Below are positions 12,650 through 51,355 of a DNA stretch of 51,355 nucleotides, one piece after another. The DNA is from Cyanophora paradoxa CCMP329. Lineage: Eukaryota > Plantae > Glaucophyta. Position 1 is the first letter of the stretch, and each line of letters begins with the position of its first letter. Position numbers and translations under genes: made by a program. The DNA lies in assembly GCA_004431415.1 (NCBI GenBank), contig QPMI01000538.1, forward strand, positions 1-51,355, written 5' to 3'. Below the pieces are notes generated by a model that was given only the letters and a program-made list of their open reading frames with translations, was not told where the DNA came from and searched no databases.

Positions 12650-12861
12650 TAGTATACTAGTAGCCTAGTAGCTAGTATTGGTAGTATGGTACTAGCGCAG
12701 AAAACAAAATCCGACCGTCGGACCGATGATATCGATCGTGTCTTTTGGCACTTCCGGGATCACGGCGGGATCGGATATCGAATCATATTAACGATACCGT
12801 AATACACAATATATTATGTCATGCAAATTTATGTCGTTTTAAAACCCGAGCCTTCAGACTC

Positions 12862-26334: not shown

Positions 26335-26618
26335 ACACATAGTAAAATGCGGAGTTTTAACCCTCGGCTTAATCTTAATTGATTTTGTTGATATATCTCG
26401 TATATTCTATTTCAATCAATCGATAATCTGTGTATATCTTATCGAATATTCATTTATTTCGTTTATTTTGTATTCTTTTCGATATTTTATCGTAAATTTC
26501 TCTTATTTTCCGATTAGTCTTACTGAGTCTATCGATAATCTGTATATATTTCCGAATAATATAACTGAATCTCAATTAGATCTTGCCTCTGGTTAAAACT
26601 CCGCATTTTACTATGTGT
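26335..26618. repeat. Terminal imperfect palindrome/hairpin with a perfect 28-bp stem
   Basis: ACACATAGTAAAATGCGGAGTTTTAACC (26335-26362) is the exact reverse complement of 26591-26618; the interior is partially self-complementary. Confidence 0.9.
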
Positions 26619-26859
26619 GATTGGTCTAAAAGTTAATTGATTTAATCGATATTATATTCATGTACTTTCTCGATTAAATTTAATTAAATTTAATTCATTT
26701 AATCGGAAACATATCGCTAAACTCGATTAAGATCCATAAATGATTCATTTGTTTATATTAACAAATCGATCTCTTATTGAATTCAATCGTAATTATACAT
26801 GAAATTGATATGTTTTTATCATGTTTTATTGAGTCTAAGGGGGGACCCTTAGAAAATTG

Positions 26860-26962
26860 GGTGTCACAGGTGTCACAGGTGTCACAGGTCAATCCCAAGG
26901 AAAGTCCTAGTGAGAAATTGATTTTTAAAATCCACGGGATAGACCTGTGACACCTGTGACAC
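26860..26962. promoter_or_regulatory. Iteron-type origin-like element, copy 1
   Basis: (GGTGTCACA)x3, an AT-rich core with GATTTTTAAAATC, then inverted TGTGACACC-TGTGACAC. Confidence 0.6.
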
Positions 26963-27295
26963 AAACCATATTCAGTAAGGACCTCATATATTGTGAAAAT
27001 CTCAGTGTTAGTTGGTGTAGTTGATTCAAAAAATGCATTTTATACTCTGATTCATTGTTATTTCCTGTGAAATTTGAGTCAACTCAACCCACTTAGTCAA
27101 CCCTTGCATTGAATTCGTAACAAAATCCATATACTATTACTACTTTTACGATTAATATGAGTCAACCTTGAGTCCACTTTAATTATAGGGGGAATCTAGG
27201 GGAATGTTGAGTTTTACTGTAATGAAATCGAACATTATTCCAATTACTTACAATAGAATTCTATCGTAAAAAATGTCCGGAATCCGGAAAATAAT

Positions 27296-27360
27296 CATTG
27301 TATAAAGCTACTGTAGTGAAAGGATATATTATATCTTTTTGTTACAGTAGCTTATCAATG
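27296..27360 (-). terminator. Imperfect hairpin downstream of the leftward gene block
   Basis: AAGCTACTGTA...TACAGTAGCTT with further paired flanks (CATTG/CAATG), about 50 bp after the AdoMetDC stop. Confidence 0.45.
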
Positions 27361-27410
27361 TTATTGTTAGAAAACAAAGGAATCCTTTAGAAATTCATTA
27401 TAGAAACCCA

Positions 27411-27809
27411 TCAAAACGGGAATCTATCATGTTTATGTCTCTCAGTCTTCTCAAATGTTAAGAAATTCATTGTTTTATCGATCTCATCTGCTACTGATTG
27501 TGTTTTATGCTGAGCTTCTTTACCACAACTGAATATATCAATTGCTAACATGCCTTCATTGGAATAACAATGAGCTGTACAATGGCTTTCATCTAATAGC
27601 AGAACCAAAGCAAAACCAGGAGGTGATAGTTTGCCATCAAATATCTCACAGTGTTTATGAACAATCCTAATACCTTGTCTCAATATTGCTTGTTCAAGGG
27701 TTCTCATAATCCAATTACCAAGAAAGCTAACATGCTCATAACCTGTTGCTATAGCTGTTTTAGCCTTGTAATCAAGCATTACATGAAAGCCTCTGTATTT
27801 AGTCTCCAT
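27411..27809 (-). CDS. speD: S-adenosylmethionine decarboxylase proenzyme (short prokaryote-type)
   Basis: LLLDESHCTAHCY...LAIDIFSCG: ESH autocleavage (pyruvoyl) motif plus the D..SCG motif; 132 aa. Confidence 0.85.
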   Translation of the reverse strand: METKYRGFHVMLDYKAKTAIATGYEHVSFLGNWIMRTLEQAILRQGIRIVHKHCEIFDGKLSPPGFALVLLLDESHCTAHCYSNEGMLAIDIFSCGKEAQHKTQSVADEIDKTMNFLTFEKTERHKHDRFPF

Positions 27810-27838
27810 TAAGAATACCTTAGAAAAATTAATTAATC

Positions 27839-28111
27839 CTAATCGAACCTAATGCAAATATCCCTGTACTCTACTTTGATTGATGAAGTAGCCCTTTTCC
27901 TGTAAGCCTGAGAATGCTTTTTGTTGCATTCCCTACAACCTGATCCCTTCACATGATTAAAGGGATATGTAAGGATCACCTTGTTACACTGCAAACATCT
28001 AACAGATACTTTCTCTTGAGCTTTGATGTAATGTGTCTCACTGTAATCGAATTTATCTTTACCATGAACTGTCATAGCAGCATCAATAAACTTTTTTGTT
28101 TTACTATCCAT
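27839..28111 (-). CDS. Small zinc-binding protein (DUF723-like, the module found in viral homing endonucleases)
   Basis: FIDAAMTVHGKDKFDYSETHY...VRCLQC...NHVKGSGCREC. Confidence 0.65.
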   Translation of the reverse strand: MDSKTKKFIDAAMTVHGKDKFDYSETHYIKAQEKVSVRCLQCNKVILTYPFNHVKGSGCRECNKKHSQAYRKRATSSIKVEYRDICIRFD

Positions 28112-28133
28112 ACTCTATATATAACCAATATTC

Positions 28134-28970
28134 TTATGGAGCAGTATCCTGTCCAAAAATGGGGAAATATCGATTTGTGCCATAATACTCAGCATAGGTA
28201 TTCTGCCTTGCAATAAAATCGGTTCTCTCAGCATATAATACACACTTGTAGATACCAAACTTGGTGGCTCTCACTAAGAACTGATAATCTTCCAAACCGA
28301 AATTGACTCCATGATAAGCAATACCAAAATTATCATATGGGGTGATCACAACAGCAAAATTAGGAGTTCCACCCTCTACTTGGCAAACAGCATAAACATC
28401 AGGTGGAATATCAACAACTACCTTATAGTGGTCACCAATCTCAACAAGAGAGTCTACTACTGCTGTTTGTTCATTCACAACAATTGGGAATATCTTGATT
28501 ATATAGGGGGCATTCATGCTGGGGACATAGGTTCGAATTCTTGTGTTAGGATCAATGGGATTGGGTTGATCATTCACAAATAGAGGCGCTCCAACAGCCC
28601 CACCAACCCTAAGACCATCACCAATATAAGCTCCCCCCGATTTGCAGTTAATAGCTCCAGACCTAGATTCAAAAGAATAAGTAGACAGAGGATCTCCATA
28701 GCTATCTGGGTCTCCATAATGAGCAGAAAAGTTTGCATTTGTGACAAGTAGCTTAGTTGTCTTAACTATTCCATTATTTTTATCACATCTGAGTTCCTGC
28801 AATCTCAGTTTGTGGGTGGAACCAAAAGTATTCATGGTAGGTTGGACCTCTGTGGATTGGAGACCTTCCACATCATCAAAAGTAGCATGCTGTAAAACAT
28901 GGTTTGCTGGGGCAGCTAATGATAGCTGTGGTGTTATAATTCGCTCTATTGGTGTGGGTGCCTCTGCCAT
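28134..28970 (-). CDS. Putative virion fibre/spike protein, paralogue of 29538-30392
   Basis: ELRCDKNNGIVKTTKLLVTNANF versus ELRADKNSGVVKTTRLLVTNANF; GGAYIGDGLRVGG fibre-like motif. Confidence 0.55.
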   Translation of the reverse strand: MAEAPTPIERIITPQLSLAAPANHVLQHATFDDVEGLQSTEVQPTMNTFGSTHKLRLQELRCDKNNGIVKTTKLLVTNANFSAHYGDPDSYGDPLSTYSFESRSGAINCKSGGAYIGDGLRVGGAVGAPLFVNDQPNPIDPNTRIRTYVPSMNAPYIIKIFPIVVNEQTAVVDSLVEIGDHYKVVVDIPPDVYAVCQVEGGTPNFAVVITPYDNFGIAYHGVNFGLEDYQFLVRATKFGIYKCVLYAERTDFIARQNTYAEYYGTNRYFPIFGQDTAP

Positions 28971-28993
28971 TTTACATTAAAGGGATATATCTT

Positions 28994-29488
28994 TTATGGG
29001 GTTGGCTCATCAATTACATTCAAATATGCAAACTCTCCTTTAATTTCGATTGCCCGGGCATTGTATGCTCTTGCTGCGTCTTCTTCTTTTTCAAAGTAGC
29101 CAATAATAATTTGTTTATAGTCGTGTTTGATTTTTGCAAGCCATTTCTTCATTCCTTTACTCCAAGAGACACCTTTGTATTTACTGGTGGATTCTTGTGT
29201 AGTTTTGGGTTTGTTCATCTGATTCTGTGCATGTGTGCATCTCCGAAGATTGGTTTTTCTATTGTCCAACTTGTCGTGATTGATATGATCAATCTGAATC
29301 TTAGGGTCAATTTCAGACATTGCATATCTGTGCGCCCTGGTGAGTGTTTGACCAATTCTGCAATTTACATAACCTCTCGTATCAATTGACCAAGTATACC
29401 TCTCAAACCGTTCTTTATCTTCATAATCAATTTTCATAAACTTCCCATGACCTTTTTTTCCTGAGAGAGCGATTAAAGCATAATCCAT
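28994..29488 (-). CDS. HNH endonuclease with AP2 DNA-binding domain
   Basis: IDHINHDKLDNRKTNLR (HNH) and SKYKGVSW...WLAKI...IGYFEKEEDAARAYN (AP2). Confidence 0.9.
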   Translation of the reverse strand: MDYALIALSGKKGHGKFMKIDYEDKERFERYTWSIDTRGYVNCRIGQTLTRAHRYAMSEIDPKIQIDHINHDKLDNRKTNLRRCTHAQNQMNKPKTTQESTSKYKGVSWSKGMKKWLAKIKHDYKQIIIGYFEKEEDAARAYNARAIEIKGEFAYLNVIDEPTP

Positions 29489-29537
29489 GATGGTGAATTC
29501 TTATACGTTTTACCAAGCTATTTTTTATATCATTTTT

Positions 29538-30392
29538 TTATGGGGTCGGGTCATCAATAATATCTGGCTCCGCATAGAATCCGGTTGTGAAGATATCAGC
29601 AACATTTACCCCACGAAGTGCTGATACAGCTGCTATATCTGTTCTCAGTCCCATAATCATAGTATTGTATACTCCAACCTCAGTGACAAACAGATCATAA
29701 GTAAATGTCAGATTGTTATAAACACAATATCCCCGACCAAAATGGTTGGATGCTTGAACAAAGAATAGGTAATTGTGACCTTGTTGGTTATTATTTGCTC
29801 TACACATTGAGAGCATTGCTGTGGGAAGAGGAATATTCCTTCTCACTCGATCAGTTCCTGTAATGGAAACCAATTCTGAATTTTCAAGAGTGACAGATGA
29901 TGCAACATAGAAATGCAGAAAAGGTTGCTGTGCAACTGGTGTATAGAACCGAATTCTTTGTGGGTTCTCTACATTTTGTTCAAGAGTATCTGGGACATCA
30001 TTGTAGGAAACAGAGGATGAAAGCTGACCTGAAACTCTGCAACCACCACCAATAAAAGCTCCTCCTGATCTCACAGTAACAGCAGCAGTATTCTTATCGA
30101 AATCTAGGGCTTTCAGATCAACACTGTAAGCATCAGGACCTCCATTTGTAGGTTGGAAGAAGTTTGCATTAGTCACAAGAAGTCGAGTTGTTTTAACCAC
30201 ACCAGAATTCTTATCAGCTCTCAGCTCTTTAACTCGAATAATCGAATTCTTATCAAAGGAGTTACCATTGGAATTGGGTCTCTCTGTGGATTCTAATCCA
30301 CGAACCTCATCATTTACTTCATGCTGGCGAAAATGCATTGCAGGGGATCCAAGGGAATATATTGGAAGTTGAACTCGATTATATTCACCCAT
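29538..30392 (-). CDS. Putative virion fibre/spike protein, paralogue of 28134-28970
   Basis: Shared N-terminal and GGAFIGGGCRVSG motifs, shared C-terminal RTD. Confidence 0.55.
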   Translation of the reverse strand: MGEYNRVQLPIYSLGSPAMHFRQHEVNDEVRGLESTERPNSNGNSFDKNSIIRVKELRADKNSGVVKTTRLLVTNANFFQPTNGGPDAYSVDLKALDFDKNTAAVTVRSGGAFIGGGCRVSGQLSSSVSYNDVPDTLEQNVENPQRIRFYTPVAQQPFLHFYVASSVTLENSELVSITGTDRVRRNIPLPTAMLSMCRANNNQQGHNYLFFVQASNHFGRGYCVYNNLTFTYDLFVTEVGVYNTMIMGLRTDIAAVSALRGVNVADIFTTGFYAEPDIIDDPTP

Positions 30393-30431
30393 TGCTTCTT
30401 TTACTAAGAAGGAAAGAAAAATAAACTACCA

Positions 30432-30737
30432 TCAAGCCAAAGTGATTAAATTCGATCCAAGGGATTGGTAAACAGTTGAAAGAACTTGCAGGTTGGACGT
30501 CATTGCTTTAATGTTGTTATCACACTCATTGTATTTAGCAACAGGGTCACCATATGCAGCTTGAGCAAGGACATTAACCAAGAGGTTTTTATACTCATTT
30601 ACAACTGGTGAGAGCTTGTTAGTTTGCTGAATCGTTTTTTCCACTGTTTGTAATGCGTTTACAAGGGTGATTGTATCAAAAGAAAGCGCAACAGGCTCAG
30701 TAGAATAGGTGGTTCCACCAAGTGGATAGGTCGCCAT
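30432..30737 (-). CDS. Hypothetical protein (101 aa)
   Basis: Intact ORF tightly packed behind the fibre gene. Confidence 0.6.
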   Translation of the reverse strand: MATYPLGGTTYSTEPVALSFDTITLVNALQTVEKTIQQTNKLSPVVNEYKNLLVNVLAQAAYGDPVAKYNECDNNIKAMTSNLQVLSTVYQSLGSNLITLA

Positions 30738-30740
30738 TTA

Positions 30741-33700
30741 TTATACTGTGACATTTTTAATTTGGTCTATTTGACTTTGGAGATTTTCACATGTTTGTGT
30801 TAAATATTTGCATTTCTGGGATAATTCCTTTACAGCTTCTATGAGAACTGGAATTAAACCGGTGTATTCGAGAGCTAAGTAGCCATCGTCTTGTTTTGCT
30901 CTCACAACTTCTGGTATTACCTGTTGCACATCTTGCGCAATTAAACCTAATCTTGTTCCATCTTTTTCACTTCCGATTCGTTTAAAACTCACTCCTTCTA
31001 ATTTCTCTATTGCTGAAAGAGCGCCAGTTATCTTTTTAATATCGGTTTTGTATCTTCTATCGCTACCTTGTCCGAGATAGTTTCTAACCCACATGTATCC
31101 ATCATCATTTATAAATGCTACATGTGTATCCCACGTATTTCTAAATTCTACTACTGTTGTTGCATGTCCTCTAATATATGTAGTTGATGCTGAACCGAAA
31201 TATATTCTTGAATAACCTTCACTTGAAGTAATCCAAGTTCCGGTTGCCCAAGTTGTGCGTTCATCTTTACTAAAAACGTTATCCCAACTTATAAAACCAT
31301 TTGCTGGGGCTGTTCTTCCTTTTTCTTTTGTCCATCCAATCATACCAATATGACATCTCCCTTTTCTTGCAACAAATCTTACATAGGAGAATGTATCACA
31401 ATGGAAAGAAGTCCATGTTAAGCCATCATGCCAATCTGAATCGTAATTATTTGAAACGGCTTGGTAGCAATTCACCCTCATAATGTGATGCCACCTCCCA
31501 TTTCGATAGCCTCCAATATCGAAATATCTGCAATTTGTCCAACACATATACTGAACATGACATGTTTTCATATTGGCTGGGACTTCAATTTGCGCCCAAC
31601 CACCATCTGTTTCATCGCCTGAAATGTTACTATAAAATCCATCGACTGGATTTGTGTAGGTTGGTGTCCAACCTGTTGTCCAAGATCCACTAAATGATAA
31701 GCTGTAAGAACCTGTTCCACTCCAAGTATCAAAACCTGTAATGTTTCCTATCGAATTAGTCACATTTGTTAATGTAAGCATAGAAGGTTTACTATAAACA
31801 TTATCCCAGTGGATAAAACCTGTGTGACCACCATAACTGGATCCATTCCATACTTTCATAAAACTAATACCCATAATGTGAACCCTTCCAACTTTTGCAT
31901 AAATCCGAATGCGAATAAAACGATTTCCAAGATGGATTTGAACATTATTTACACCACTATGGTTACCATCTGCTGAGGTGCTATATGGGTTGTAACTGTT
32001 GACAGTTGTAATATAAATACCATTTCCTTGTCGATTAATTCCCCAAATCTCAAACAATCGACAGTTTCCCCAAGGTAAATATGTTAAATATGCTGTTCCT
32101 GTGTGTAAACCATCGGGTATATTGTATTCTATCCAAGCGGAAGAAGTTTGGTCATCAACTTCATTATTAAATGCATACCCACCATAATTATAATATGGAT
32201 CCCATGATGATCCATACCCGAAATTCCAACCAGAAGAATAATTATATGGAGAACTACCTGCAACTGAGGCATCTGCTGTGTGAAACTTTGGAACAGCATT
32301 ACCATTTATTTGGAGATTTGTAGTAGCATTTATAGTGGTTGCTGTAATGGTATTATTGACCCAAAGGTTACCATTGTCATAAGATTTTAATAATGCTGTA
32401 TCTCCTGAGTTTCTAAATTCGATAGAGACACCTTCACCATTCCCATACCCTCGAATATATGTTGTATTCCCACTACCAAACCAAAACCTTGGAATATTAT
32501 CTGTTGATTTGTGCCAGTCCACAGAGTTCACTGTCAATAGATCACCTAAAACGTTAGGGACTTCTGCCTTTGTTGCATAAGTGCCTGCAAAATCAGGTTT
32601 ACTAAATACATTATCCCAAGAGATCATGCCCAATTCATTATCTGTTGCTCTCTGTCTGCTCCAACCAAAAACACCTGTGAGATGAATGCGACCTTTTCGA
32701 CCTTGAACATAAATATATTTGTAGAATTCGCAATTGACAGAGACAAACAAGATTGTATTGTGTGTTCCATCCTGATTAACCTGTTGAATTCCCTGATAGG
32801 CATTAACTCGTTTTAAGAAATGTTGATATCCATTAGTTGTTTGTCCATAGATATCGAAATATCTACAATTATACCAAGGCATATGCTGGATATAAAACGA
32901 TTTCATCCCTGCTGGAATAAGCCATCTCATCCAACAGCCACTGCAATCAGCATCATTCTCTGGTGTGGTGTAGCAACCATTTTGCCCTGTTCTTGATGCC
33001 CATGTAACAGTCCAGTTATCTGGAGATCTGTCTGTCGAAATAACATCTAATTGGTCGAAATCATAACCTTTTGGTATTGTGGTTCCCCCAATTTGTAGAG
33101 TGGTAGCATTCACAGTTCCATTAACAGTTCCACCTGTAAGAGGTAAATAATTCCCAAGAGCTGCTGTCAACTCTGCATCTGTTGCATAGCTATTTAAACT
33201 GGCTGAGGTCAGATATCCTTTATTGTTAAGGTAATCATCTGTCACTACTCCTGAAAGGGTGGTATTGTGTAAGTTTTTGGCTGCCATCCTCTGATTGACT
33301 TCTAAGGCTCCACCTGATGTCGTTTTAACCCAAGCAATCTCGCATTTTCCATGATCATCTGTGGGTTGTCCCGCAACAGGAAGGTAGTTTACAACTTTCT
33401 CCCTTGTGAACACAATTTTAGGTCTTGCTCCATCATATGCGCTTTGATCTGTAACGTTTATTTGAATAGCTGCTGAAAAATCGGCTACTTGTCCTGTTTC
33501 ACCTGGGTGATAATTCGTAACATAGATACTGGGGAAAGTATCATTTACTCCTACATTAAAATCACCATCATAAACTCCATTTACGATTGGATCCCTGGGT
33601 AATCTTACTGCAAGAGTTCCCTCCATTGGAGTGCCTGTTTGACCTGTAAAAGTCCCATTAAGACTGACATAATGATCATTCAAATATAACCTTTCAGGTG

Positions 33701-36250
33701 TATTACTGGATTGGTAAAGTGTGACTCCATTGAAAACATTTCCAATCGCATTCAATTGTGCAAATACTGGTTGTTGATCGATTTCACTCCAAGGGTGTCT
33801 GTGATTGCAGTTGGTGATCTGGGAATAATCATGACTGTGTGGATCAGGTGGAAAAGTTAATGGTGGATTTACGATTTGCTCCCATAAATGCCCATGGGAA
33901 CTGGGAGGGAATGTTAATGGTGGATTTGTTATATGCTCCCATAAATGCTCATGTGCAAAATCTGTTATTTCATCTTTTGTGTGGGTGTGGTTGTCGATCC
34001 AACCTAAAACTACATTGGATGTAGGATGATTTGGTAGATTTGCTGCAATATTCACAGTCAAATAGTCGACTTCTAGATTACTTCCGTAAATATTGCTTGC
34101 CCATAGATTACTGGTGTAAATGTTACTTGTATAAAGGTTACTGGTGAAAATGTTACTTGTGACTGTAAGGTTTGTGTCATTTTTGATCACAAAAAGAGAA
34201 AGAATGTTTGTTAATTCACCTTCATCAATATATCCTTGCTCTTCTAAATAATCCTCTGTGACCACTCTCGAAATAGTCTCATTGTGAATATTCTTTGCAG
34301 CCATCCTCTGATTGGCTTCCAGAACCCCACCATAGTTTGTTTTAATCCATGCAAGCTCTGCCCTTCCATAGTTATCATTTGCAGTTCCCACTATGGGAAT
34401 ATAGGAATATTTATCTCGACTGAAAACTATCATTGGTCTTGATCCATCTAGACTGCTTACATCTGCTACATGAACCTGTATAGCAGAGTTGTAATTTTGG
34501 TAGGTTGCTGGGTCTGTTGGGACTCTGAATGTATCTGTGGGAATGTCAGCCTCCATGTAGCTTGACACAAAGATATTTGGTATGGTTGCTCCTGGTTCAG
34601 GTGGTGGATTATAAGAGCCTGGTAATGTCCTAATATGAAGTGGTCCTCTCATAGCTGAATTCGCAAGTGTCCCATTCACATGAACATAGTGGTGATTCAA
34701 AAAGATCCTTTCAGGGACATTGCAAGTCTGGTAAAGAGAAACCCCCAAGTTATCAAGAGGCTCTACCTTTGCGAATTCTGGTTGGTCATTAATCTCATCC
34801 CAAGTATGTTCATGTTTGCTTGGTGGGAACTCAGTTGGAATCCCATCAATATCACCCCAATCATGCCTGTGGTCTTCTGGTGGGTATTTCTGTGGTTTGC
34901 CTAAGATCTCATCCCAGTCATGATTGTGGTCCTCTGGGGGATACTTTGCAGGTTTATTATTAATTTGTTCATAATCAGGGAAGAACTCCCAGATCTCAGG
35001 TCGAAATCCATCTGGTAACAATTCCTCATGGGGTTCATAAGGTTGCTCATAGTCAACAGCTGGTGGATCATGACCATCTGGTAAATACTCCTCATCAGGT
35101 TCATAGTTCTGTTCATACTCATATTCTTGTGGGTCAAAACCATCTGGGAGTATCTCCTCCTCATTGGGGTCAAACTGATCATACTCATATTCTTGTGGGT
35201 CGAAACCATCTGGTAAATACTCTTCCTCATCTGGAACGAATTGATATTCATCAAGCTCTAATATATCGACTTCAGGAGGTAAATACTGCTCATCTATTTG
35301 CTTTCTGGGTTCAATTATAGGTTTATTGCGAACTTGCTCCCAACTAACAATATGCTGCCAAAGGCTACATCTTCAGTTGCTGTGTATTCTCTTCCAGGCT
35401 GTTTCTTTGGTGTTAAATCGGGAGGTCCATTTGGAAATGGAATAGGGAATGGAACTGTTGGTCCATTGGGACCATAATGCTCAATTATTTCCCTTAGAGT
35501 TTTCTCACTCACAAGTTTCTCCCCATTTGCATACACATTGCTGCCATGGATATTTCGCCATTGCCTGGTTCTAATTCCAAGGTCTTTCACATTGCTATAC
35601 AAAGGCAAAAGGTGCCTATCCATTTCGACTAAATCAGGATGTAAATGGATTGCTACTGGTTGACTGGGGCTACTGTTGATTGTAATTGATGGCTTTTTTT
35701 GATGGACATCTTTTGGAGTAAAAAACCCAAAAGGCTCATTCCTCGCAAAGTCATATGTAATATCCTTGGGGTATACATCATTTGTGTAGGAGACCTGATT
35801 TGTGTTGGCAATGGGACCCACTTGCAATACTTGGGGGACCTCAGCTTTTGCAGTGCTGCCCTCATTGTAAATTCGCAAAGCTGTGTTCTGTTTGCCCTGC
35901 TCATCTTGAACATTGAAAATCAATCGACCACTATCGAACCTGGAAGGTATATCTGGGTGAGTGCCACTGGTTTTTAGTTTCCTAGGTCTCCTTCTTGTTG
36001 CTTTGATCTCTGCTACTTGGTTTGCTTTCACATTACCCAAACTAAAGGCTACACTGACATCCTCTTTATCTGGATCGGTTTGATTCACAGATAAAGCATG
36101 CTCCCTTGATTGAGTCTTTGATGAATTATCAGAGCTGTGGTCAATTGAAACTGAACCCTTTACTTTAATATTATCAAAGTTCACATGCTTGGTGCTGCTT
36201 GCATTATCATCTTGAATGGTTTCTAGATTTGGTGGGTAATTGAAGCTCAT
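30741..36250 (-). CDS. Large fibre protein with C-terminal intramolecular chaperone (peptidase S74); ~1836 aa if one missing T near 35360 is restored
   Basis: The frame of the 1426-aa ORF stays open to ~35365 and joins the 311-aa ORF (GCCTTT[T]GG). HxHxWxxIxxxP repeats, acidic LPDGFDPQEYEY repeats, and SDRRYK...GLIAQDV...YTGLIPVLIEAVKEL (S74). Confidence 0.82.
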
Positions 36251-36293
36251 GGCTTTTACTATATGGATTTATAAAATTCCTGATAAGTAAAAG

Positions 36294-38772: not shown

Positions 38773-38801
38773 TTTAATATATAAATATAGATAAAAGAAG
38801 A

Positions 38802-39811: not shown

Positions 39812-39864
39812 ATTAAGGATCATTGGTAGATTTTTTATGTTGCAGTATAATAAAAGAGAATATA

Positions 39865-41231: not shown

Positions 41232-41296
41232 ATTGTTACGATATTCAGTCTCTCTGCATTATTTTTATCTGTATTTATTTAGAAAGATATACAACA

Positions 41297-42079
41297 ATGA
41301 CTGATTTGGATGAATTTGTGGCTGGTGAAATGATTAATCCCCCTTTTCGAGTCCTAGCCATTGGTAAATCGGCTACTGGTAAATCAGAAGCTGTAAAGTA
41401 TTGGTTGAAGCAGTTGCATGATGCCAAAAAGATTGATGTTGTATTAGTTGTGAGTGGAACCAGCTTCAATCATTTCTGGGATAAAGTTGCAACATTGCAA
41501 CTGGGAAAATGGGATGCCCCTTACATTGCTAAATTGCTAGATGAAAGGCAAGAGAAAATAGAAAAAGGTGAACCTGTTAACCAGTTATGTGTGGTTCTAG
41601 ATGATTTAATCGATAATGAGATTGTAGACCTAACTCGTGATAAAATTATTGGCTCTCTGTATTCCAGAGGTCGCCATTCGAAAATATCCATTATCTGCAT
41701 CACACAAAAGCTAAGGAAAGTCTCTTCGACTATTCGAGTTAATTCGGACTATGCAATGTTTCTAAGTGCTGCAAATCGCAAAGAACTTGAAGCCATAGAG
41801 GAAGAATACAATATAATGCGAAATAAAGAGGATTTTTACAAGATGTTTGAAGAGTATGTTCACTCCTATCAGTATATTATTTGGTCCTCTGCAAACTACT
41901 CAGTTAAATACTATGTAGATAAAGCTGAGCTTGTGAAAGATTTTCCATTTCCTCGCTTCCACAGGAAGCCAAAAAAGAAAGAAGATGAACTGAAACCTCC
42001 AGAGAAAGAGGAAGCCCCTAAAGAAGTGAAAAGCCAAGTCCATAGCAATAAATTGATGCGATATAAACGCGGTTTATAA
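41297..42079 (+). CDS. A32/FtsK-HerA-type DNA packaging ATPase
   Basis: Walker A GKSATGKS, Walker B VVLDD, SRGRH (Arg finger), ICITQ, IRVNSDY. Confidence 0.92.
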   Translation: MTDLDEFVAGEMINPPFRVLAIGKSATGKSEAVKYWLKQLHDAKKIDVVLVVSGTSFNHFWDKVATLQLGKWDAPYIAKLLDERQEKIEKGEPVNQLCVVLDDLIDNEIVDLTRDKIIGSLYSRGRHSKISIICITQKLRKVSSTIRVNSDYAMFLSAANRKELEAIEEEYNIMRNKEDFYKMFEEYVHSYQYIIWSSANYSVKYYVDKAELVKDFPFPRFHRKPKKKEDELKPPEKEEAPKEVKSQVHSNKLMRYKRGL

Positions 42080-42107
42080 AATTATCTCTCATTCTAATAA
42101 AGATACA

Positions 42108-42548
42108 ATGCCTCCCAAACGAAAGATAGGGATCCCAGCTGGGGCTGTTGGCTATTCAGGTGGTGGAAACAATGGATCCATTAATACTGAACCAATGAAA
42201 TTCAATGGTATGAATGAGGTAAAGCCCTCACAACAAGAAGAGGACCCCCTCAATGCTGCCTATGAGGAATCAGTCGATGACAAAGCCCCACAGGCTTCAA
42301 CCAGTGACCAACTCAATATATCACCAGAAGCCTCAAAAATGAAAGCTGTTGCTGAGGGTGCCAGGCGAATTATTGGTGCTGCTGATGATAAAGGTTTAGG
42401 CTTGCAAGATCTATCACTGGCTCGCAAAGGTGAAGGTCTAAGTAAGGAATCAGACAAGGTTATCCAGTCTATGGCTGGTGAAGTCACATATAAGACTGCT
42501 CCCACTCAAAATATTCATCGAATCCCCAAGGCTCAATGGATGAGATGA
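42108..42548 (+). CDS. Hypothetical protein with N-terminal NLS-like PPKRK
   Basis: ORF of 146 aa with an upstream TAATAAAG; may continue into 42536-43124 through frameshifts. Confidence 0.55.
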   Translation: MPPKRKIGIPAGAVGYSGGGNNGSINTEPMKFNGMNEVKPSQQEEDPLNAAYEESVDDKAPQASTSDQLNISPEASKMKAVAEGARRIIGAADDKGLGLQDLSLARKGEGLSKESDKVIQSMAGEVTYKTAPTQNIHRIPKAQWMR

Positions 42549-43124
42549 CTGCTAAACTTAAAGATCTGGAAGCCAAATCAAGTGCCTTGGAGCAGTATGT
42601 TACTGAGAAGAAAGAGAGAGCTAAGCTAAAGGAGATGCTTCGAAAGGAAGTTATAAAATGGGCATTACTGGTGTCCCAGATAAACAGTTCATTGCTAAGA
42701 AAGAGACCAAATCGATGAGCAAGCAGTAGATGAAATGAAAACAAAGACCCAGAAGGGAACTATTGAACCTGGTGCCACCAAAGCTGAAGTAGAAAAGGGA
42801 GTAGCCCAACAGTATATAAAAGACGAGTTTGGCTTTAATTTTCTCTGTTTTATTAGAGATATGGACATAATACGAAAGTTCTTCGAGATGTTCAGTCTGC
42901 ATGTGGTGAGCAATTGCCACAGTGGATGTTGTGAGACAACAGTGGAGTTTGAGATGTCAGATAATGAGGATAATGCCTCAGAAGCAAGAGAGAGAAGGAG
43001 GTCTACAGTTTCTGTGGAGTCAATGCCAGCAGACCCCACAGAGTATACATATGAGCAACAGGAGCAACAGGAGTATCCAAGGAGAAGTTCTCTGTCAGCA
43101 GAAAACGTTTTCTCTGGAATATAA
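42536..43124 (+). CDS. Hypothetical coiled-coil/acidic protein (probably frameshifted)
   Basis: Adjacent same-strand ORFs 42536-42718 and 42735-43124. Confidence 0.4.
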
Positions 43125-43201
43125 ATGGAGGACACTATTAGTTTAATCGAGTTTACCAGTGATGAACCTGTTACTGAGGTTCTATAAGACACATTCTAGC
43201 A

Positions 43202-43465
43202 ATGCAGAAACGATATAGAGAGGACCCAGCATATAGAGAGTATAAAAAGCAGCAAGCCTGGCATCCTATTATCGCAGAAAAGCCCAAAAAGAGGAGCAGA
43301 GACCCAGAGGGAGACCGATTAAATATTATTTGCCAACTGAAAGTAGCAATGGACCCCCAGGTCTATAAGATAATTGAGAAAAAGCGGTCTCAGTATGCAA
43401 CTGAGGCAGCTATAAAAATATATACAAAGGAATTGGCTTTATACTTGCAATCAAGTCACAGATAA
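43202..43465 (+). CDS. Hypothetical basic protein
   Basis: ORF beginning MQKRYREDPAYREYKKQQA; the true start may be 43126. Confidence 0.4.
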   Translation: MQKRYREDPAYREYKKQQAWHPIIAEKPKKRSRDPEGDRLNIICQLKVAMDPQVYKIIEKKRSQYATEAAIKIYTKELALYLQSSHR

Positions 43466-43677
43466 CTTTTGTAAATATGCTTTTGTTGTTTTTTGTTTGC
43501 ATTCTCAGACACTGAAACAGTTATGTGAATGTTTACTGATCTATTTCTCTTTGGTTTTGTTGCATACATATTGTAACCTTTTAATCTCTGTGACATTTCG
43601 ATATATGCCCCTATATCTCCATGCTTTATGCATTTATCTAACTCAGTCATGGTCATCTCATCAAGAGTCTTTGCCAT
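43456..43677 (-). CDS. Small hypothetical protein (MAKTLDEM...)
   Basis: ATG at 43677 preceded by a TACTTAAG motif like those of the other leftward genes in this block. Confidence 0.4.
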   Translation of the reverse strand: MAKTLDEMTMTELDKCIKHGDIGAYIEMSQRLKGYNMYATKPKRNRSVNIHITVSVSENANKKQQKHIYKSYL

Positions 43678-43744
43678 TTTGTCTTCACTATACACAATCA
43701 AGTAAGCCTTAAGTATTCTTGTCAAATTTTGGTCTTTTTCGATC

Positions 43745-43846
43745 GGTGTCACAGGTGTCACAGGTGTCACAGGTCTATCCCACCGATTTTCAAAATCATT
43801 TTTTATGTTTGACTTTCCCTGGGATGGACCTGTGACACCTGTGAAC
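43745..43846. promoter_or_regulatory. Iteron-type origin-like element, copy 2 (core inverted relative to copy 1)
   Basis: (GGTGTCACA)x3...GATTTTCAAAATC...TGTGACACC, about 60 bp downstream of the primase-helicase stop. Confidence 0.65.
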
Positions 43847-43906
43847 AACACCATTTCCAGTAAGGCTATAAACATTACATATACAATCAATCATTTATCG
43901 TTTTGT

Positions 43907-46213
43907 TTAATATTCAACATCCTCTCCATTGTCTTCTTGAACCCTTGTTATCTTTCGAAGTCCAATGTAGCCCCTTGCTCTGGTTCCATGAATTCGTTTA
44001 ACCTCTGATTTAACATTGAAGATTTCCCTTACTCTTTTCATAACAGATACACATTCAACTTTATCATCTACACTTTTGTATGATCTGTAAATGATATCAC
44101 TGGAAACAAAGTCGTTAGCATTATGTGTAACCTCGAAATTATCTCGAAGCCATTCACCAATCTTGTCATTTTCAGCTATAAAGTTAATTCCCTGTTCAAT
44201 AATCGATTGAGGGGGACTTCTTAAGATCTCTTCAACCTCTTTGTTCTTCCACATATCCAGTAATATCTTCATGTGAGCCATCTTATACTCATCATCATTG
44301 TGAAGAAGTGTGAACAGAGTTGGATCAGCTTTCTTCTGACCAGCTTCAGGCTTCTCTCTGAAAATATTGTTGAATCTCTGGTATGAAAGTCTTCTTTGAA
44401 TTGCGAAGTCTGGTTTATTAATAGTCAAATTGTCATTAGTTGTAATGTAAACTTGAAACATTGGAGTGAGGATAACTGGATCTTTGAACAAGGCTCTCAC
44501 AGTCATTTCATTTCCACCTGTGACCTCCTTAATCTTGGAGATCTGCAGTTTATCACCATCTTCAGCCTCATTACTGAATACAAGTCGCTTTCCAAGGAGT
44601 TTGGCAAGTTCAGGAGTAGCCTCTGATGAGTTCTTTTTAGGCTTAGTCCAATAGGATATTTCGAGAGGGCTGTAATAACGACCAGATATCTGTTTGCAGT
44701 ATTCCTGAACAAGTGATTTACCATTAGCACCAGCACCAGTCCACATATAGAACTTCTGGGATTTAGTTGATCCACTAAGGGCAATTGCAATGGATGCCAG
44801 AAGATACTTTCGCTCTGCTGGATCATCCACAATCTCTTTATAAATCTGATTTAGATGCTCTATTTTCTTGGGGTCTACATTTTCAGTATAGTCATAACCC
44901 ACAGTCTTACTCACCATATCTTCCAGTTTACCCTTTCTGAAAGTCATAGTGGTCAGATCAAATACACCATTTTCGAATCCAATCACATATGGAACAGTGT
45001 CAATCTTCTCAAAGAATTCATCATCATTCAGCAGTGGGACCAAGTCAGTCAGAAGGGATTTGCGAAATCCTGATTGTTTAAGGTTTTTGGCAATGGTCAT
45101 CAATGTTTTGGATCTTTCTTCGAAAGTTGCTTTGTTTTCCTCATCCTTTAAGCTCTTTGACTATAATGCACAGCCCTTCCAAGGTATTGGGGACAACAAG
45201 ACGGCTTATATCTAGGTAAATCTTAAGGTTTGTGTCATCAAGCTCCCAAATCCAGTATCAGTATTGAGTTTGAACCATGACTTTTTGGAGTATCTCCAAG
45301 TGTGTTTCAGAACCTCTTTGCATACTAAACTTACATCATAATGAGCGCCACCTGAACCAGCGGATTTATCTATAAGATTAAAGATATCAGATTGCATTCC
45401 AATGCAGATGAATCGTTTTTTGCAATTTCCACTGTAGCTTGACACAATGTATTTGTTATCATCTCCTTAGCTTTCATAACATACCAGTTATTCGATTCAT
45501 GTGAACCGTTACAGCATGGGCAATTGAGTCCCTTGTTAGCAGCATCAAAGTTAAAGCCAAGTTCAGTTTAGAGATTATATTGGATGCATAAATCCCATAT
45601 CCACCAGCTCTTTGATAATATTGTTTTCCAGTTCATCATATGAGTAGCATTAGCAGTATACTCACTCTTATAGATGTAGTTATCGATAATCCACTTTTGA
45701 AGTCATCAGTAGGCTCATTGAATCACAGGTATCATCCCATGGGAGATCACCAAGCCTTGTTGACACTGGACAAACATTAATTAATCCAGAAGTTCCAGTT
45801 CCAGTGATTGTTTTCAGGTCACTTTTCAAAGCCTTTAAGCCTGGAGCCTTATCGTGATTTTGAGTTTAGTGAACTCCTCAGTCGTTTAAAGTAGACATGA
45901 TAGCCTTTTTTAGTTTTGCCATGGGCTGATTGGCATCAAAGTCATCAGGAACATATCCGGAATTTCTCAAAGTTCTCCTCATCATCAAAGTCAATAACCA
46001 TCATGTTGTCTGAGAGCAGAATGCCCCAAGATACATACTGATTAGTTGCCAGCGCTTCCTCATACTTTTCCCAGGACCAAGCACCTCCCTTATGCTTGAA
46101 AACTGGGTCTTTGCTGTCAGGTTTCACTGGGATAATCATGTTTTGGACAGTTCCTCATCAGAACGAAGCCAGTTAGCGAGCGATTTAATTAACTTGGTCT
46201 GTTTGGCGTTCAT
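43907..46213 (-). CDS. Prim-Pol primase fused to a D5-like SF3 helicase (several frameshifts)
   Basis: N-terminal IIPVKPDSKDP...WGILLSDNMMVIDFD...KKGYHVYF (Prim-Pol); IGFENGVFDL (D5_N); Walker A GAGANGKS; FSNE; ITTND; IQRRL. Confidence 0.88.
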
Positions 46214-46342
46214 TTTCAGCGATTGGGGTCCTTTTATATATATAGAGATTTTTCTTAAGTAGTTTTGGGTCCCCCAATCATTTTTTGTTGGAAATCGAGA
46301 AAGTATCCCTACGAAATTTATCCACATGATATATCGAGTGGT

Positions 46343-46672
46343 TTAGATACAAAAAGGATGAATGGGTATTTCAGCGATTAAACAGCATATCCCCAGCCTA
46401 GTTATATGCTGGGAAAAATAATTTAGACATGTTTCGATTTCTCCTCGATTGAGTAGGGACATCATACAAATACTTGACAAAGCAGACTGCATTGGCTGCA
46501 TACTTTCGCTGACATGAACTGCAATTTTCATTGTTCTGTAGGTATCATCGGTTTGATATAGATCTCTAAGCTGTGTGGCTATTTTTTTCGTTAAACTTTT
46601 TGATTTGAGCCTTACCTTTTTCAGTTTGCTGGTATCTCTTCATAGCTCTCTTCTGGGCTTCACTGATGGCAT
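46343..46672 (-). CDS. Small hypothetical basic protein (frameshifted)
   Basis: ATG at 46672 downstream of the conserved TATATATA promoter-like motif. Confidence 0.35.
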
Positions 46673-46727
46673 TTTTCCTCTGTCTCTCTTAATATATATA
46701 GAGAATTCTTTAAATCATTTTTGTTCT

Positions 46728-47542
46728 CTAACCTCTTTGTCCAAATCGCTCAATATACATAAGTTTGAAATGCTTACCTAGCAATGCTACAAATGGTTCG
46801 ATTTCCAAGGTCTCCCATGTTTTCTTGTCCTTATTCCATCTGCAATCTAATCCTTTTGCGATATCTTTTTTAAGATAAGGCACCTGAAACCCAGCAACCA
46901 ATGTATTTGTTGTACTGAGTTCTGCATACATTTCAATCAATGCAGATCTGCCCTCTCTGAACCTCTCTATATCATCTCTGCGAAGATTATCCATTTTCGG
47001 AATAAATTGGTTGCACCAAATCAGGAAAAGATTAACTGCATGTTTATTCCTTGCTCTTTCTTGTTCTAATTCTCTCTGTCTTCGCTCTCTTTCTTCTAAT
47101 TCAAGCTGCCTCTTTCGAGCTTCCTCTTGTTTTTCAAGTTCTCTTTTTCTTTCCAGTTCTTCTTGCTTTAAAGCGATTCTGCACTTATTACAGAAATTAT
47201 CCTTTCGGTTTTTATGCCGATCTCCACATCTTTCACATATATCTTGACCTCTGGCACCCTTCGGAATAAATCGTAAAATGCAGCAATTCCCAACAATGAC
47301 CACAATCTTTTATTAACATGCAGAATATAGCATTGCTCTTTAATTGGATGATCACAGGCGCAATGCTCAGACTCTGGAGGCAGGTCATAGTCACTTAATC
47401 CATATTTTGCAAGCTTTGCCCAAAGAGGGAGCGGTTTCCTGTTACTTCCAAGAGCAACATAATCATTGAAGTTATCAGATCCACAAAGCAACATTAAAGC
47501 CGCTTTGAGCTTTTCCAGGCAATACGATTTCTTCTCTGCCAT
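46728..47542 (-). CDS. Cys-rich, coiled-coil, DUF5710-like protein (frameshift near 47305)
   Basis: CACDHPIKEQCYI...VGNCCILRF...CERCGDRHKNRKDNFCNKC; C-terminal VPYLKKDIAKGLDCRWNKDKKTW. Confidence 0.6.
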
Positions 47543-47651
47543 TGTCCTTTTATATATATAGAAGATATTTCTTTAAGTAGTTTTCATCAAATTTTGTGTT
47601 CAGAATTCCCCATTTAAAACCTCTCCTTTTAGTAGGAACAAGTTAGGAACT

Positions 47652-50600
47652 ATGCCCCGAATTAGCAACAGACTCATTAGAGAGAAGAAATGGGAACTCA
47701 TGGGATTACTGGGAACACTGTATGCAGCCCATGAAATCACAGAGGCTGAATATGACCGGGAAATCGGATTTATTTCAAGGGGCAGACCCACTTTAGCAAA
47801 ATTAACCAGAAAAGCCAATAACCTCTATGACAAAGTTGAGACTCTTGATGAACTCGATCGCCTGAGGCAAATAGAACCAGAGGCAGAAGATGGAACAGCC
47901 ATGAATGAATTATATCGCTGGCTCACATACAGAGCCAGAAGGGAAGTTGTTGTTAGATGTGATTGAATATTTAGATAGAATTGCAACCTCTCTACCAAAA
48001 CGTTTAAGGATAGTCTGGATCAATTCAGGGCAATCAAAGTTCGCTTGTCGTTTATCTGCAAGTTCGTAAAAGTCAGCAATCCACAGGTTTGGATATCGAA
48101 ATACATTTACAGCGATTATTTTGTATTAACCAAATCGAGAAATATTCGAACTGAGCTGAATAAAGCAGCCCAAATGTGTCAGGAACAGATGAATGTTGTT
48201 GATAGCTATCGATTGGAGAGAATCGAAATGCTAAGAGTTGCTATTATGAGTTATGCCCCAACTGGTGGCTGCTATGTTAAAACACCAGAATCAATTGCAG
48301 CCAAGAGAGCCACAGTGAATATTCGAAATATTGATGATTCTTGCTTTGAAAATGCCATTTTGGCATGGATCCATAGGAAAGATGTAAATTCCCACAAGAG
48401 AAGTGAGCTTACACAATATCGCAAATGGAAATACTCACCAACCACATACAATCCTTTGGCTCTCAATTTCGACAATATCCCATTCCCTGTTCCTTGTGAT
48501 GCTGAAATCATTGATAAATTCGAATCTCAAAATGCAGGCATCAGCATAAACATATTTGGAATGGATGGAGATGTTATATATCCCTACATCAATCCAGCAA
48601 CCCAGGCAGAAAGCAAAAGATTAATCTAATGCTCATTCATGATGATGAAGGGAATGGTCACTATATTACAATCATGTCCCTTTCAAGACTTCTCAGAGTT
48701 GCCCTTGATAAAACCAAGGATCAAAAGTTACACTACTGTGATACATGCTTATCTCGATTCAGGTCTGAGGCTAAACTCACTGCTCATGTGGACTCAAACA
48801 GATGCATTGATTGGAGACTCTCAAAGGGAATCACCCTAACCTGAACCACCATAGAGTTTGGACTGAAAAACCTCAGGAAAACTGTCTGGCTTCCTGTTGT
48901 GGTTTACTGCAAGATTGAACATAGAAGCATCCCCATTGATGCATCGAAATCCAAGAGGGAAGTCTCAGCAGTCAACCTAGAATAGTCACTGGGGCAGATG
49001 TTCAGATTTTCGATTTGAGGGCAGGATCCAATGGGAGGTCTGTTTGAATGCTTGGAGTCCAAAGCAAGAGAGCTAATCGATTTCCTGTTCACCAATATTC
49101 CCATGAATGAACTCACAGATGAGCAAAAGGCTATTTACAGAGCTACAAACACTGTTACCTTTGCAGTGAGAGGTTCACCAAGGAAAACTTCAAATGCAGG
49201 GATCATGATCACCACACAGGTAATTACATTGCTCCTGCATGCAGAAACTGCAATCTCCATAGGAGAATCTCAAAGCAAACAAAGTAGCAGTGGTTGTTGA
49301 CCAAATGGATGACTGTGGGACATTCATTTTCAGAAAAATAGCAGGCATGGGTGATAAAAAGCGAATCGAAATCCTTTCGAAAAACTTTGATCAATACCTT
49401 TCATTGCAATGGGGTCTTTACAAGTTCATTGATGCAAGTAATTTATGGACTTTGGGGCTGCTGATGTAGATGAGTTAATGAGCAAATTCCAGGCTTTCAG
49501 AAGGCTTTCACACTCAGTATATGGATTGGACCCAGTTCATTATGTATCTGCACCTGGGTTATCTTGGGATGCTATGCTTAGGACCACCAAGGCAAAAATA
49601 GAGCTTATAAGTGATGTAGAGCAATACGAATTTGTTGAGAGGGGAATCAGGGGTGGCTTTGCAACAATGCCTTGTAGGTATGCTGAGGCTGATGGTGAGA
49701 ACTCCCATATAATGCTGTTTGATGCTAACAACTTGTATGGCTACTGTTTGAGTCAGCCAATCCAGTTGGTGATTTTAGATGGGAGACCGAATTCAACCCA
49801 CAAGATAACAGATCCAGTTTCCTGGAAGTTGATCTGGATTACCCAATTAGGCTATATCTAGACCACAGTGATTTCCCCCTAATTATTAACAAGAAAATAG
49901 TAGAATATGCGAATTATCACAATATCAAAAGAGCCTATTAGATCTCTCAGGAGAAGAGCTTGATAAGACCCCTAAGCTAACTGCAACCTTTGGTTCTGTG
50001 ACCAACTATGTGATTTCTGAGCCTCTTCTACAGTATCTGTTGGACAAAGGGGTGAAACTAAAGAAGGTTCACAGGGTCCTATCATTTACTGTGGCTCCTG
50101 TAATGAAACCCTACATTGAGCTGAATACTGAGATGAGAAGGAAAGCAGTGAATAAATTCGAGGCTGATTTCTATAAACTCATGAATAACTCAATCTATGG
50201 GAAATGCATTGAATCTTGCAGAGGTAGATCTGTGGTTAAGATTGCAAACAGTGAGAAACTGTTTATGAAATATGCAGCCTCTCCCATTGGTGAAATCAAC
50301 AAGTCCCATAAACGAAAAAGCAGTTGCCTTTGAGTTTTACACAAAGCATGTGAAGCTAGATAAGCCAGTTGCTATTGGGGCTTATGTTTGGATGCAGCCA
50401 AACTGCATAACTACAAGTTCTTCTATGATACTGTAAGGTCCCAATGGACAAAGCAAAGTTACTATTCCATGATACTGACTCCTTGTCTATATATGAATCT
50501 AAGACCCTCAAAAAGATAGGAATATATCTTTATGCATTGGACCTAGGGGGGTCTAACAGAATGACCCCAGGTAAATACAAAAATGAAATGCCTGGCTCTG

Positions 50601-50878
50601 CTATATTGGAGTATGTGGGTCTGAGAGCTAAAGTTTACAGTTTCAGAACTGCTGAGATTGAGAGGAGTAAGCTCTCTGGGACTTCAACTGAGGAACTCCA
50701 ATTTAATGATTTTAAACAGTGTTTATTTGCAGGTATCAGCAAGACTGTGACTGCAAAGCAGAAGAGAAGGGCAGATCACACAATAATAGATACTGTGAGT
50801 AGAAGGGTTGCCCTAAACTGCTTTGATGCAAAGAGATACATCTTACCAGATGGTATTAATTCTGTTCCTTTTAATTAA
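47652..50878 (+). CDS. polB: Protein-primed family B DNA polymerase, Maverick-type (multiple frameshifts)
   Basis: NIRNIDDSCF; C2H2 finger CDTCL...H...C; RDHDHHTG...CRNCN; YGLDPVHYVSAPGLSWDAML; IRGG; motif A DANNLYG; motif B KLMNNSIYGK; motif C HDTDS; GLRAKVYS. Confidence 0.92.
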
Positions 50879-50881
50879 GAG

Positions 50882-51355
50882 ATGCCAGCAACTGGAAGAA
50901 TAGTTAGAAGAACCACTGAGCAACTGCAAGGTAACCTCTGCCTATCACATTCCAAAGGAGGAAAAGGGGAATCTCGAATTGTTCAAAAAGTCAGAATGAA
51001 AGAGCTTGTCCCAGTAGAGATCCCAGTTGCTATTGCAGTGAAAGAAACCAGCAAGATTGCCAAGAGATTCTATGATGTGAGAACTGGTTACAAAGGGCTT
51101 CAAGCTATGAGGGCTGAGTTACCTGATGAATCCTATAAGCAGTTGCAAGAGTTCTATAAAAACAAGAAGTTGTTCAGATCAATGCACCTGCTATATCTAG
51201 GAAGAGAGATCCCATGGTCAATTAGGCAACCCTTGATACCTATGTGATTGATTTACTCTTTTTCCCAGTTATAAGAAACAAACAATGGCTATGATACATT
51301 TATGACTGCAATGGAATCACACTAAGAACTGGGTATATTATACCTATAAGGGATA
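50882..51355 (+). CDS. Retroviral-like (rve) integrase, Polinton type; 5' part only, frameshifted
   Basis: FYDVRTGYKG N-terminal block. At 51241, YVIDLLFFP.YKK.NNGYDTFMTAM...GYIIP resembles the Polinton-INT block (D-L..M..Y.K.N.GY.YIL..ID). Confidence 0.72.

Follow-up and report, generated by a model that had tools for sequence, protein, structure and literature searches.

What is the AT-rich DNA that fills the second half of the 51,355-nt stretch analysed here (the window), and how does it relate to the GC-rich DNA beside it? An initial annotation took positions 26335-51355 for an endogenous virus of the Maverick/Polinton class with an unusual, chimeric gene set, from a poorly described lineage. 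We find that this segment is probably the leftmost 25 kb of the genome of a polinton-like virus (PLV), likely integrated in nuclear DNA of the Cyanophora type and likely a member of a multicopy family already counted there. The assignment to the Polinton/PLV class of endogenous viruses, which agrees with the initial annotation, is made because a capsid gene, a packaging ATPase, a fibre and replication genes occur together behind a sharp boundary in G+C content (GC). Among 29 open reading frames (ORFs) of the AT-rich part scanned with Pfam, 10 have a match at E<=0.01 and 6 score above the curated cut-off. The patatin lipase, S-adenosylmethionine decarboxylase (AdoMetDC), HNH-AP2 endonuclease and D5 helicase named in the initial annotation all pass that cut-off, the AP2 domain itself being recognised through the PDB.

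The left boundary is precise. GC, measured in 2-kb windows, is 53-74% over the first 26 kb and 36-42% beyond, and the transition is confined to about 100 bases around 26335. The GC-rich host flank at 22617-26334 (no strand assigned), delimited by blastn and sequence, is a direct repeat of 1-3661 with 97.8% identity by blastn. Homology between the two copies ends exactly at 3661 and 26334, where one is followed by unrelated DNA and the other by the AT-rich element. A 41-nt inverted repeat likewise has its outermost base at 26335, and a contig of one sequencing run (X20) begins there. Since the end of flank homology, the edge of the inverted repeat and the start of the X20 contig agree, 26335 is the true left end of the element; its right end lies beyond the window. 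The proposed extent of at least 25 kb therefore stands, from the GC step to the window end, and fits the PLV size class of 14-40 kb (PMC12220804).

The left terminus is a 284-bp unit (26335-26618, no strand), delimited by repeat search, blastn and DNA folding. Its two arms, 26335-26375 and 26578-26618, match perfectly over 28 nt and enclose an AT-rich core of 202 nt, an arrangement far beyond chance. The fold of the 284 bp reaches z -10.95 against shuffled sequences, and only the outer 41 nt pair. The terminus is thus a stem around a 202-nt core and not a full hairpin. Of the hairpin end and iteron origins first proposed, the inverted repeat is real, as are the GGTGTCACA arrays discussed below; a complete hairpin is not found, and the functions assigned to both would be inferred ones.

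Sequences related to the element are abundant in sequencing data. At 90% identity or more, 8312, 3029 and 4227 contigs of three DNA runs, counted over all identity classes, match 25400-45399, and some unique-looking parts of that interval are matched by contigs without any difference. The segment 38001-48000 is present in 20 of the 24 runs listed, with about half of its words in 19, from 15 studies and under one organism label; no RNA run was found among the listed runs containing it. Run X20, which has a second organism label (B) and is possibly an RNA run, contains contigs of low depth, as at 26335-26740, whose identity to many parts of the element is 95-99%.

These data bear on whether the AT-rich part might instead be free or episomal virus DNA of the culture, joined by the assembler to a repeated host sequence. 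We have seen no read or contig bridging 26334/26335, so that for this copy integration depends on the assembly being correct; the flank is a repeat, and the X20 contig starts exactly at the terminus. Thousands of variant contigs with 90-99% identity are, however, a better fit to many diverged genomic copies, and hundreds of capsid genes have been placed on C. paradoxa genome contigs (PMC10120064). The homology of both flank copies also ends exactly at the inverted-repeat boundary, and we consider free virus DNA very improbable.

The major capsid gene, recognised by homologues and by fold and Atlas searches, occupies 39865-41231 (+) with one frame break at 40353-40355, and ORFs 39823-40671 and 40356-41231 are two frames of this one gene. 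An exhaustive phmmer search of 1,835,955,588 representative proteins with the C-terminal half returned two relatives: a 456-aa protein (P0002), which is EukProt EP00741_Cyanophora_paradoxa_P015758 and the nearest relative, and a 431-aa protein from a Logan contig (P0003). Residues 1-165 of P0002 align to the first frame with 64% identity and residues 166-456 to the second with 58%; this collinear alignment to both frames places a single break at 40353-40355, in a short C run. A word-indexed search with the capsid profile found only the same two relatives among 7998 candidates. Pattern scans of IMG/VR with the C-terminal half and the alignment gave no relative, nor did the alignment in JGI metagenomes.

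Structure prediction, a check suggested with the initial annotation, yielded fold matches of one kind from a poor model. With the weak model of P0002, Foldseek returned 22 PDB matches at E<=0.001, and all 35 PDB matches listed are double jelly-roll capsid or scaffold proteins, including PBCV-1 Vp54, SGIV, mavirus, vaccinia D13, ASFV p72, Faustovirus, Melbournevirus and Sputnik. In BFVD, 19 matches reach E<=0.001, a protein of Tetraselmis viridis virus S1 coming first, with giant-virus (NCLDV) and virophage capsids among the others. Template modelling (TM) scores are low, at 0.18-0.28. As a rough control, an equally poor model, that of a minor capsid candidate of this element (candidate a below), gave no Foldseek match at E<=0.001. 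The ESM Atlas neighbours of the capsid protein are viral clusters (score 0.98) in which Capsid_N or Capsid_NCLDV occurs in 12-18% of members. Judging from the modelled fold, 39865-41231 very probably encodes a divergent double jelly-roll capsid protein.

The A32/FtsK-type packaging ATPase (41297-42079, +; Pox_A32 E 5.2e-11, above cut-off) begins 66 bp downstream of the capsid gene. It has one relative, 86% identical, among 542 candidates of a word-indexed search; none was found in an IMG/VR pattern scan or, by tblastn, in phage records.

Matches to A32, D5 and capsid proteins are shared with giant viruses, and the Atlas neighbours of the capsid protein and of candidate b, the ORF directly upstream of it, are mostly labelled Nucleocytoviricota. 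We therefore considered that the segment might be a fragment of an integrated giant virus rather than of a small polinton-like one. The polymerase, however, is of the protein-primed type instead of the giant-virus PolB, the capsid protein is of modest length (P0002 has 456 aa), the genome is small with closely packed genes, and the element has a terminus at 26335. Its gene content, moreover, agrees with that of catalogued PLV-type elements (PMC12220804). We rejected the giant-virus origin, to which we attach hardly any probability, and keep to a polinton-like virus.

Two ORFs between the lipase and capsid genes may encode minor capsid proteins. Candidate a (37840-38772, -) has a sub-threshold DUF5901 match (E 0.012). 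Candidate b (38948-39811, +), found by a language-model match, scores 0.97 to a viral cluster of the ESM Atlas in which 13% of members carry DUF5901. The two pentons of the initial annotation are thus leads at present, and BLASTP finds the two proteins not alike. A single-sequence AlphaFold2 model of candidate a has a predicted local distance difference test (pLDDT) score of 32.6, and Foldseek gave nothing for it at E<=0.001.

The fibre gene spans 30741-36250 (-) in two frame pieces, delimited by the S74 match (E 2.2e-16), repeats and a frame overlap. Its 1426-aa ORF (30741-35021, -) ends in an S74 intramolecular chaperone domain (Peptidase_S74). The stop-to-stop frame of this ORF (30744-35372, 1543 aa) overlaps the frame (35318-36268) of the upstream 311-aa ORF at 35315-36250, and read contigs carry an extra base at 35357, exactly within the overlap. 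This indicates that 35315-36250 is probably the N-terminal part of the fibre gene and that both pieces probably form one gene of about 1,850 aa. Three fibre-like genes had been proposed: one gene with a fibre domain is confirmed, 35315-36250 probably belongs to it, and the others are paralogues. Within the fibre gene, a 66-nt (22-aa) repeat occurs 3.5 times at 34999-35229; the fibre also has three internal units of about 445 aa, and every one of these bears a ...NCRYFDI... motif (repeats 31516/32851). The neighbouring gene (36294-37850, +) encodes a patatin-like phospholipase that carries a discoidin (F5/8 C) domain as a fusion, with both Patatin and F5_F8_type_C above the Pfam cut-off. Compared with solved structures, the lipase retains the glycine-rich loop GGGxRG, the GxSxG serine (GTSTGG) and the DGA aspartate of patatin, and its C-terminal part matches factor VIII C domains. 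The enzyme is apparently active.

Two replication systems are found in the element. The first is a protein-primed family B DNA polymerase (pPolB; 47979-50878, +), identified by sub-threshold Pfam matches and motif reading. Of two collinear DNA_pol_B_2 matches, one covers profile positions 150-247 (E 0.022) and the other 303-385 (E 2e-5); neither reaches the cut-off. The pieces also contain, in order, DANNLYG, KLMNNSIYGK and HDTDSL, which we take to be palm motifs A, B and C. The reading frame is split into at least seven pieces, with in-frame stops near 48842, 48983 and 50331. The polymerase that had been annotated is hence present, as read from its motifs, but as a broken gene. An OTU-like domain at its N-terminus, suggested by a motif, lacked Pfam support and was dropped. 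At 50879-51355 (+) a possible integrase gene starts and runs to the window edge; the window includes its N-terminal piece and some 45 residues that may belong to the core. This start, obtained by reading only, is what can be retained of the rve integrase claimed earlier.

The second system is a primase-helicase (43907-46342, -), with D5_N and DUF5906 above cut-off at 43907-45103. The D5 helicase half of the claimed Prim-Pol/D5 gene is intact (D5_N and S3H, 43907-45160); the Prim-Pol half (45160-46342) is broken into about eight frame pieces, and its best Pfam match reaches E 0.093. No relative of the helicase was found in an IMG/VR pattern scan. The element also has two palindromes. Palindrome 1 (26860-26962, no strand; repeat search, fold z -7.68) lies near the left end and consists of three GGTGTCACA units, a spacer and two inverted copies; palindrome 2 (43745-43844, no strand; repeat search and blastn, fold z -7.51) lies just past the 3' end of the helicase gene. 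They are 86% alike, and each has three GGTGTCACA units facing two inverted units, far beyond chance. These palindromes may be origins for the primase-helicase. A further repeated element, a TATATATAGAG-type motif with 7 matches against 0.51 expected, occurs in short intergenic spacers (46233-46267, 46689-46723, 47551-47585 and 28113-28123). We rejected it as a promoter, its orientation relative to genes being inconsistent.

The occurrence of two replication systems in one element raises the question of whether the element is composite, that is, a PolB-integrase backbone with an acquired primase-helicase cassette of about 4.2 kb (~43400-47561) and its own palindrome, or else two adjacent elements; in either case the gene set would not go back to one ancestral genome. 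Elements of this kind have been described with pPolB 'or' Pri-Hel (PMC10120064). In each of the three DNA runs, summed contig depth, which is not copy number, is 4-10 times lower over 43460-47419 than in the DNA to the left and right of it; contigs of runs X1, X3 and X6 all end at 47561, and palindrome 2 lies inside the segment. On the other hand, the segment edges show no GC step, no copy of the terminal repeat and no duplicated target, and contig depth is unable to rank parts of a stretch. Published tallies (pPolB in 49 and D5_N in 40 of 156 elements) are silent on co-occurrence (PMC12220804). We hold a composite origin to be distinctly unlikely. The fibre middle (30736-33403) also has lower summed contig depth and few close read contigs, a hint that it and the primase-helicase segment vary among copies. 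One may go further and suppose that the primase-helicase and its GGTGTCACA palindrome form a self-contained replication cassette moving among PolB-type copies. As the same palindrome stands near the left end of the common backbone, copies with the cassette could replicate cassette-less ones in trans. We regard this idea, too, as unlikely.

As assembled, this copy has about 20 or more frame breaks; among the genes they interrupt are those of pPolB, Prim-Pol, capsid and fibre. The 24 indels listed between short-read contigs and the window fall at 20 distinct places, and at least 28 further indels lie beyond these. Among those listed, the contigs carry a base that is absent from the window at 18 of the 20 places and lack one at 2. 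The sequence context was inspected for 13 indel places and for the capsid break, and in most of these 14 cases a C or G run is adjacent. Listed indels coincide exactly with frame switches at 35357, 45251, 48581, 49145, 49760 and 50449; extra bases within pPolB are found at 48581, 49021, 49145, 49760 and 50449, and those within the ORF(s) of 42108-43465 at 42537, 42804, 43115 and 43256. Such one-sided missing bases, mostly beside C or G runs, resemble uncorrected long-read errors in multicopy DNA. The C. paradoxa assembly was made from PacBio reads with Canu and Quiver and corrected with Illumina reads (PMC6704402). Most frame breaks are therefore likely to be long-read assembly errors or lesions private to this copy, and the assembly alone does not allow one to judge whether the copy is decayed or, as first suggested, recently integrated and possibly reactivatable. 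More generally, frame breaks in AT-rich multicopy insertions of long-read assemblies cannot be read as decay without a check against reads.

Several observations weigh against the interpretation as an integrated polinton-like virus. In addition to the lack of a bridging read, the right end lies outside the window, and with it any matching terminal repeat and target-site duplication; what the window shows is the left terminus and its own inverted repeat. None of the read differences listed falls at the capsid break, and the three in-frame stops of pPolB are not explicable by indel errors. The capsid protein has no Pfam match (all four alignment rows, E<=10) and nothing meaningful in a PDB sequence search; the AlphaFold2 model of P0002, made from the four-row alignment, is poor (pLDDT 37.6) and its TM scores are low. 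PDB sequence searches with minor capsid candidates a and b likewise gave nothing meaningful. The integrase piece has no Pfam match, and no homologue was found among 68 longer-protein candidates of a word-indexed search. The host genus, finally, is assigned from GC and from the nearest capsid relative, which is 58-64% identical, rather than from host genes.

The gene content fits a known population. In C. paradoxa (QPMI01), iterative searches ('Iterative HMM searches') yielded 366 capsid hits in clusters of 272 and 94, a density of 3.66 per Mb, with an estimated share of 7.3% of the 99.94-Mb genome (PMC10120064 Table S4); the accessible main text of that paper does not mention the species. Among 156 Glaucocystophyceae elements, Pox_A32 was tallied in 139, lipases in 89, rve in 85, AdoMet_dc in 66, DNA_pol_B_2 in 49, D5_N in 40, HNH_3 in 40 and S74 in 37, with all protease columns at 0 and the standard capsid profile at 2 (PMC12220804 Table S6). 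The text of that work notes the discoidin-patatin fusion for these glaucophyte elements and, as far as accessible, does not discuss AdoMetDC. Adintovirus-like contigs with PolB and integrase were reported in C. paradoxa data (PMC8502044), and the genome paper gives a GC of 67.6% and, in its accessible text, makes no mention of viruses (PMC6704402).

The element resembles this population in its nearest capsid relative, which is a C. paradoxa protein, in its multicopy state and in a host GC that fits. With the catalogued Glaucocystophyceae elements it shares A32, AdoMet_dc, lipase-discoidin, HNH_3, S74 fibre, pPolB, D5 and probably rve, as well as the absence of a protease: no protease family was found in any ORF scanned with Pfam within the window, the right part of the element lying outside. 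It differs in that its capsid is only 58-64% identical to C. paradoxa P015758. Gene set, host GC and nearest capsid relative all fit the C. paradoxa element population. The gene set described at first as unusual and chimeric is accordingly one already tallied for 156 elements and is not supported as unusual. Membership in a described clade with the same gene content was named with the initial annotation as a refutation of it, and this outcome applies here, though the family has only been tabulated. The accessible parts of PMC10120064 and PMC12220804 do not describe the termini, palindromes, capsid gene or paralogue pair around the HNH gene, and in the accessible literature we found no published text on the termini, palindromes or capsid gene of this family. 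The family is catalogued in tables and has never been described, and the window holds a new member.

Comparison with other systems gives a similar picture. With algal PLVs (Tetraselmis viridis virus S1/TsV-N1 and Phaeocystis PgVV/Gezel-14T) the element agrees in size class, in its capsid-ATPase module and primase-helicase replication, and in having a long S74 fibre and a lipase gene; it additionally carries pPolB and probably rve, and its capsid, ATPase and helicase have no detectable similarity to any IMG/VR contig. The Cafeteria host of mavirus-like elements (EMALEs) reportedly has a GC of about 70%, and we know of no giant-virus partner for the host considered here. Cafeteria EMALEs are likewise multicopy AT-rich insertions in a GC-rich host (PMC8547959); their rve integrase has a probable counterpart here, and the mavirus capsid is among the weak fold matches of the P0002 model. 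In contrast to EMALEs and virophages, the present element lacks a protease and a virophage-type capsid sequence match. Mavericks/Polintons have a protein-primed PolB and an A32-type ATPase in common with it, and probably also the rve integrase and the double jelly-roll capsid; their adenain-like protease was not found in the window, nor in the 156 glaucophyte elements (PMC12220804), and the primase-helicase, AdoMetDC and lipase genes are extra.

Smaller genes fill the left part of the element. A pyruvoyl-type AdoMetDC (27411-27809, -; AdoMet_dc E 2.5e-11, above cut-off) aligns with the Thermotoga maritima proenzyme (1vr7/1tlu), and with the Glu-Ser cleavage site, His and Cys conserved it is probably active. 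Next to it lies a small Cys-rich protein with a weak treble-clef zinc-finger match (27839-28111, -; DUF4379 E 0.0094, below cut-off). Paralogues A (28134-28970, -), possibly a virion protein, and B (29538-30392, -) are 33% identical (E 1e-40) and enclose a homing-type HNH-AP2 endonuclease (28994-29488, -) with HNH_3 above cut-off; its AP2 domain falls below the Pfam cut-off and is confirmed against plant AP2 structures in the PDB. One X3 contig skips 29020-29577, which would remove the HNH-AP2 gene, a hint only, as its shorter side has 28 letters. A 101-aa ORF (30432-30737, -; ORF list and Pfam scan) precedes the fibre gene. To the right of the ATPase, frame analysis gives the ORF(s) of 42108-43465 (+), in several frame pieces and without an assigned identity. 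Around the primase-helicase and pPolB, the ORF list and Pfam scan show small ORFs at 46343-46639 (-), 47168-47572 (-) and 47577-47966 (+), together with one at 46728-47309 (-) that has a zinc ribbon, a coiled coil and a weak DUF5710 match.

The GC-rich flank was scanned with Pfam in sets of 10 and then 65 ORFs, with no domain found beyond a weak CCCH zinc-finger match; the 3.7-kb direct repeat (1-3661 and 22617-26334) contains no recognisable genes. The flank itself seems multicopy, since contig depth summed over 25400-26066 again reaches the thousands. Further to the left, a tandem duplication at 12859-18940 (period 2681 bp, 99.3% identical, about 2.3 copies) lies in DNA of 64-74% GC, and a 282-bp stretch at 3971-4252 recurs with 100% identity 5 kb away at 8922-9203. 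A low-GC island (40-45%) at 12200-12800 includes a 60-nt palindrome at 12431-12490. Neither this island nor the sequence after 3661 shows similarity to the viral element. Neither a tRNA nor an Rfam family was found in the window.

Taken as a virus, the element may be pictured as follows. The virion would have an icosahedral shell, built from the divergent double jelly-roll capsid protein and one or two minor (vertex) proteins, into which the A32 ATPase would package the genome. Attachment could be the task of the fibre, about 1,850 aa long and made trimeric by the S74 chaperone, and the patatin-discoidin lipase might help to breach the host membrane. For replication, the virus would use its protein-primed PolB at the ends of the genome, and the primase-helicase of this copy may work at the GGTGTCACA palindromes as well, the first of which lies close to the left end and the second next to the primase-helicase gene. 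An rve integrase, whose gene appears to start at the window edge, would carry out integration. AdoMetDC may alter host polyamine or S-adenosylmethionine pools, and the HNH-AP2 gene is presumably a selfish insert.

Among the three primary-plastid lineages are the glaucophytes, from which to our knowledge no virus has been isolated so far. The value of the present analysis is descriptive, and it does not overturn current views of polinton-like viruses. It concerns a virus family that fills several percent of the genome of a model glaucophyte and is known only from supplementary counts, and it offers a gene-by-gene view of one copy, with a very divergent capsid, two replication systems and sequences that are candidates for origins and for a terminus. 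Should the primase-helicase indeed move as a cassette, there would be a hierarchy of autonomous and non-autonomous members within a population of endogenous viruses that takes up about 7% of the genome of a glaucophyte, and the capsid lineage of that population would be so divergent that standard profiles miss it.

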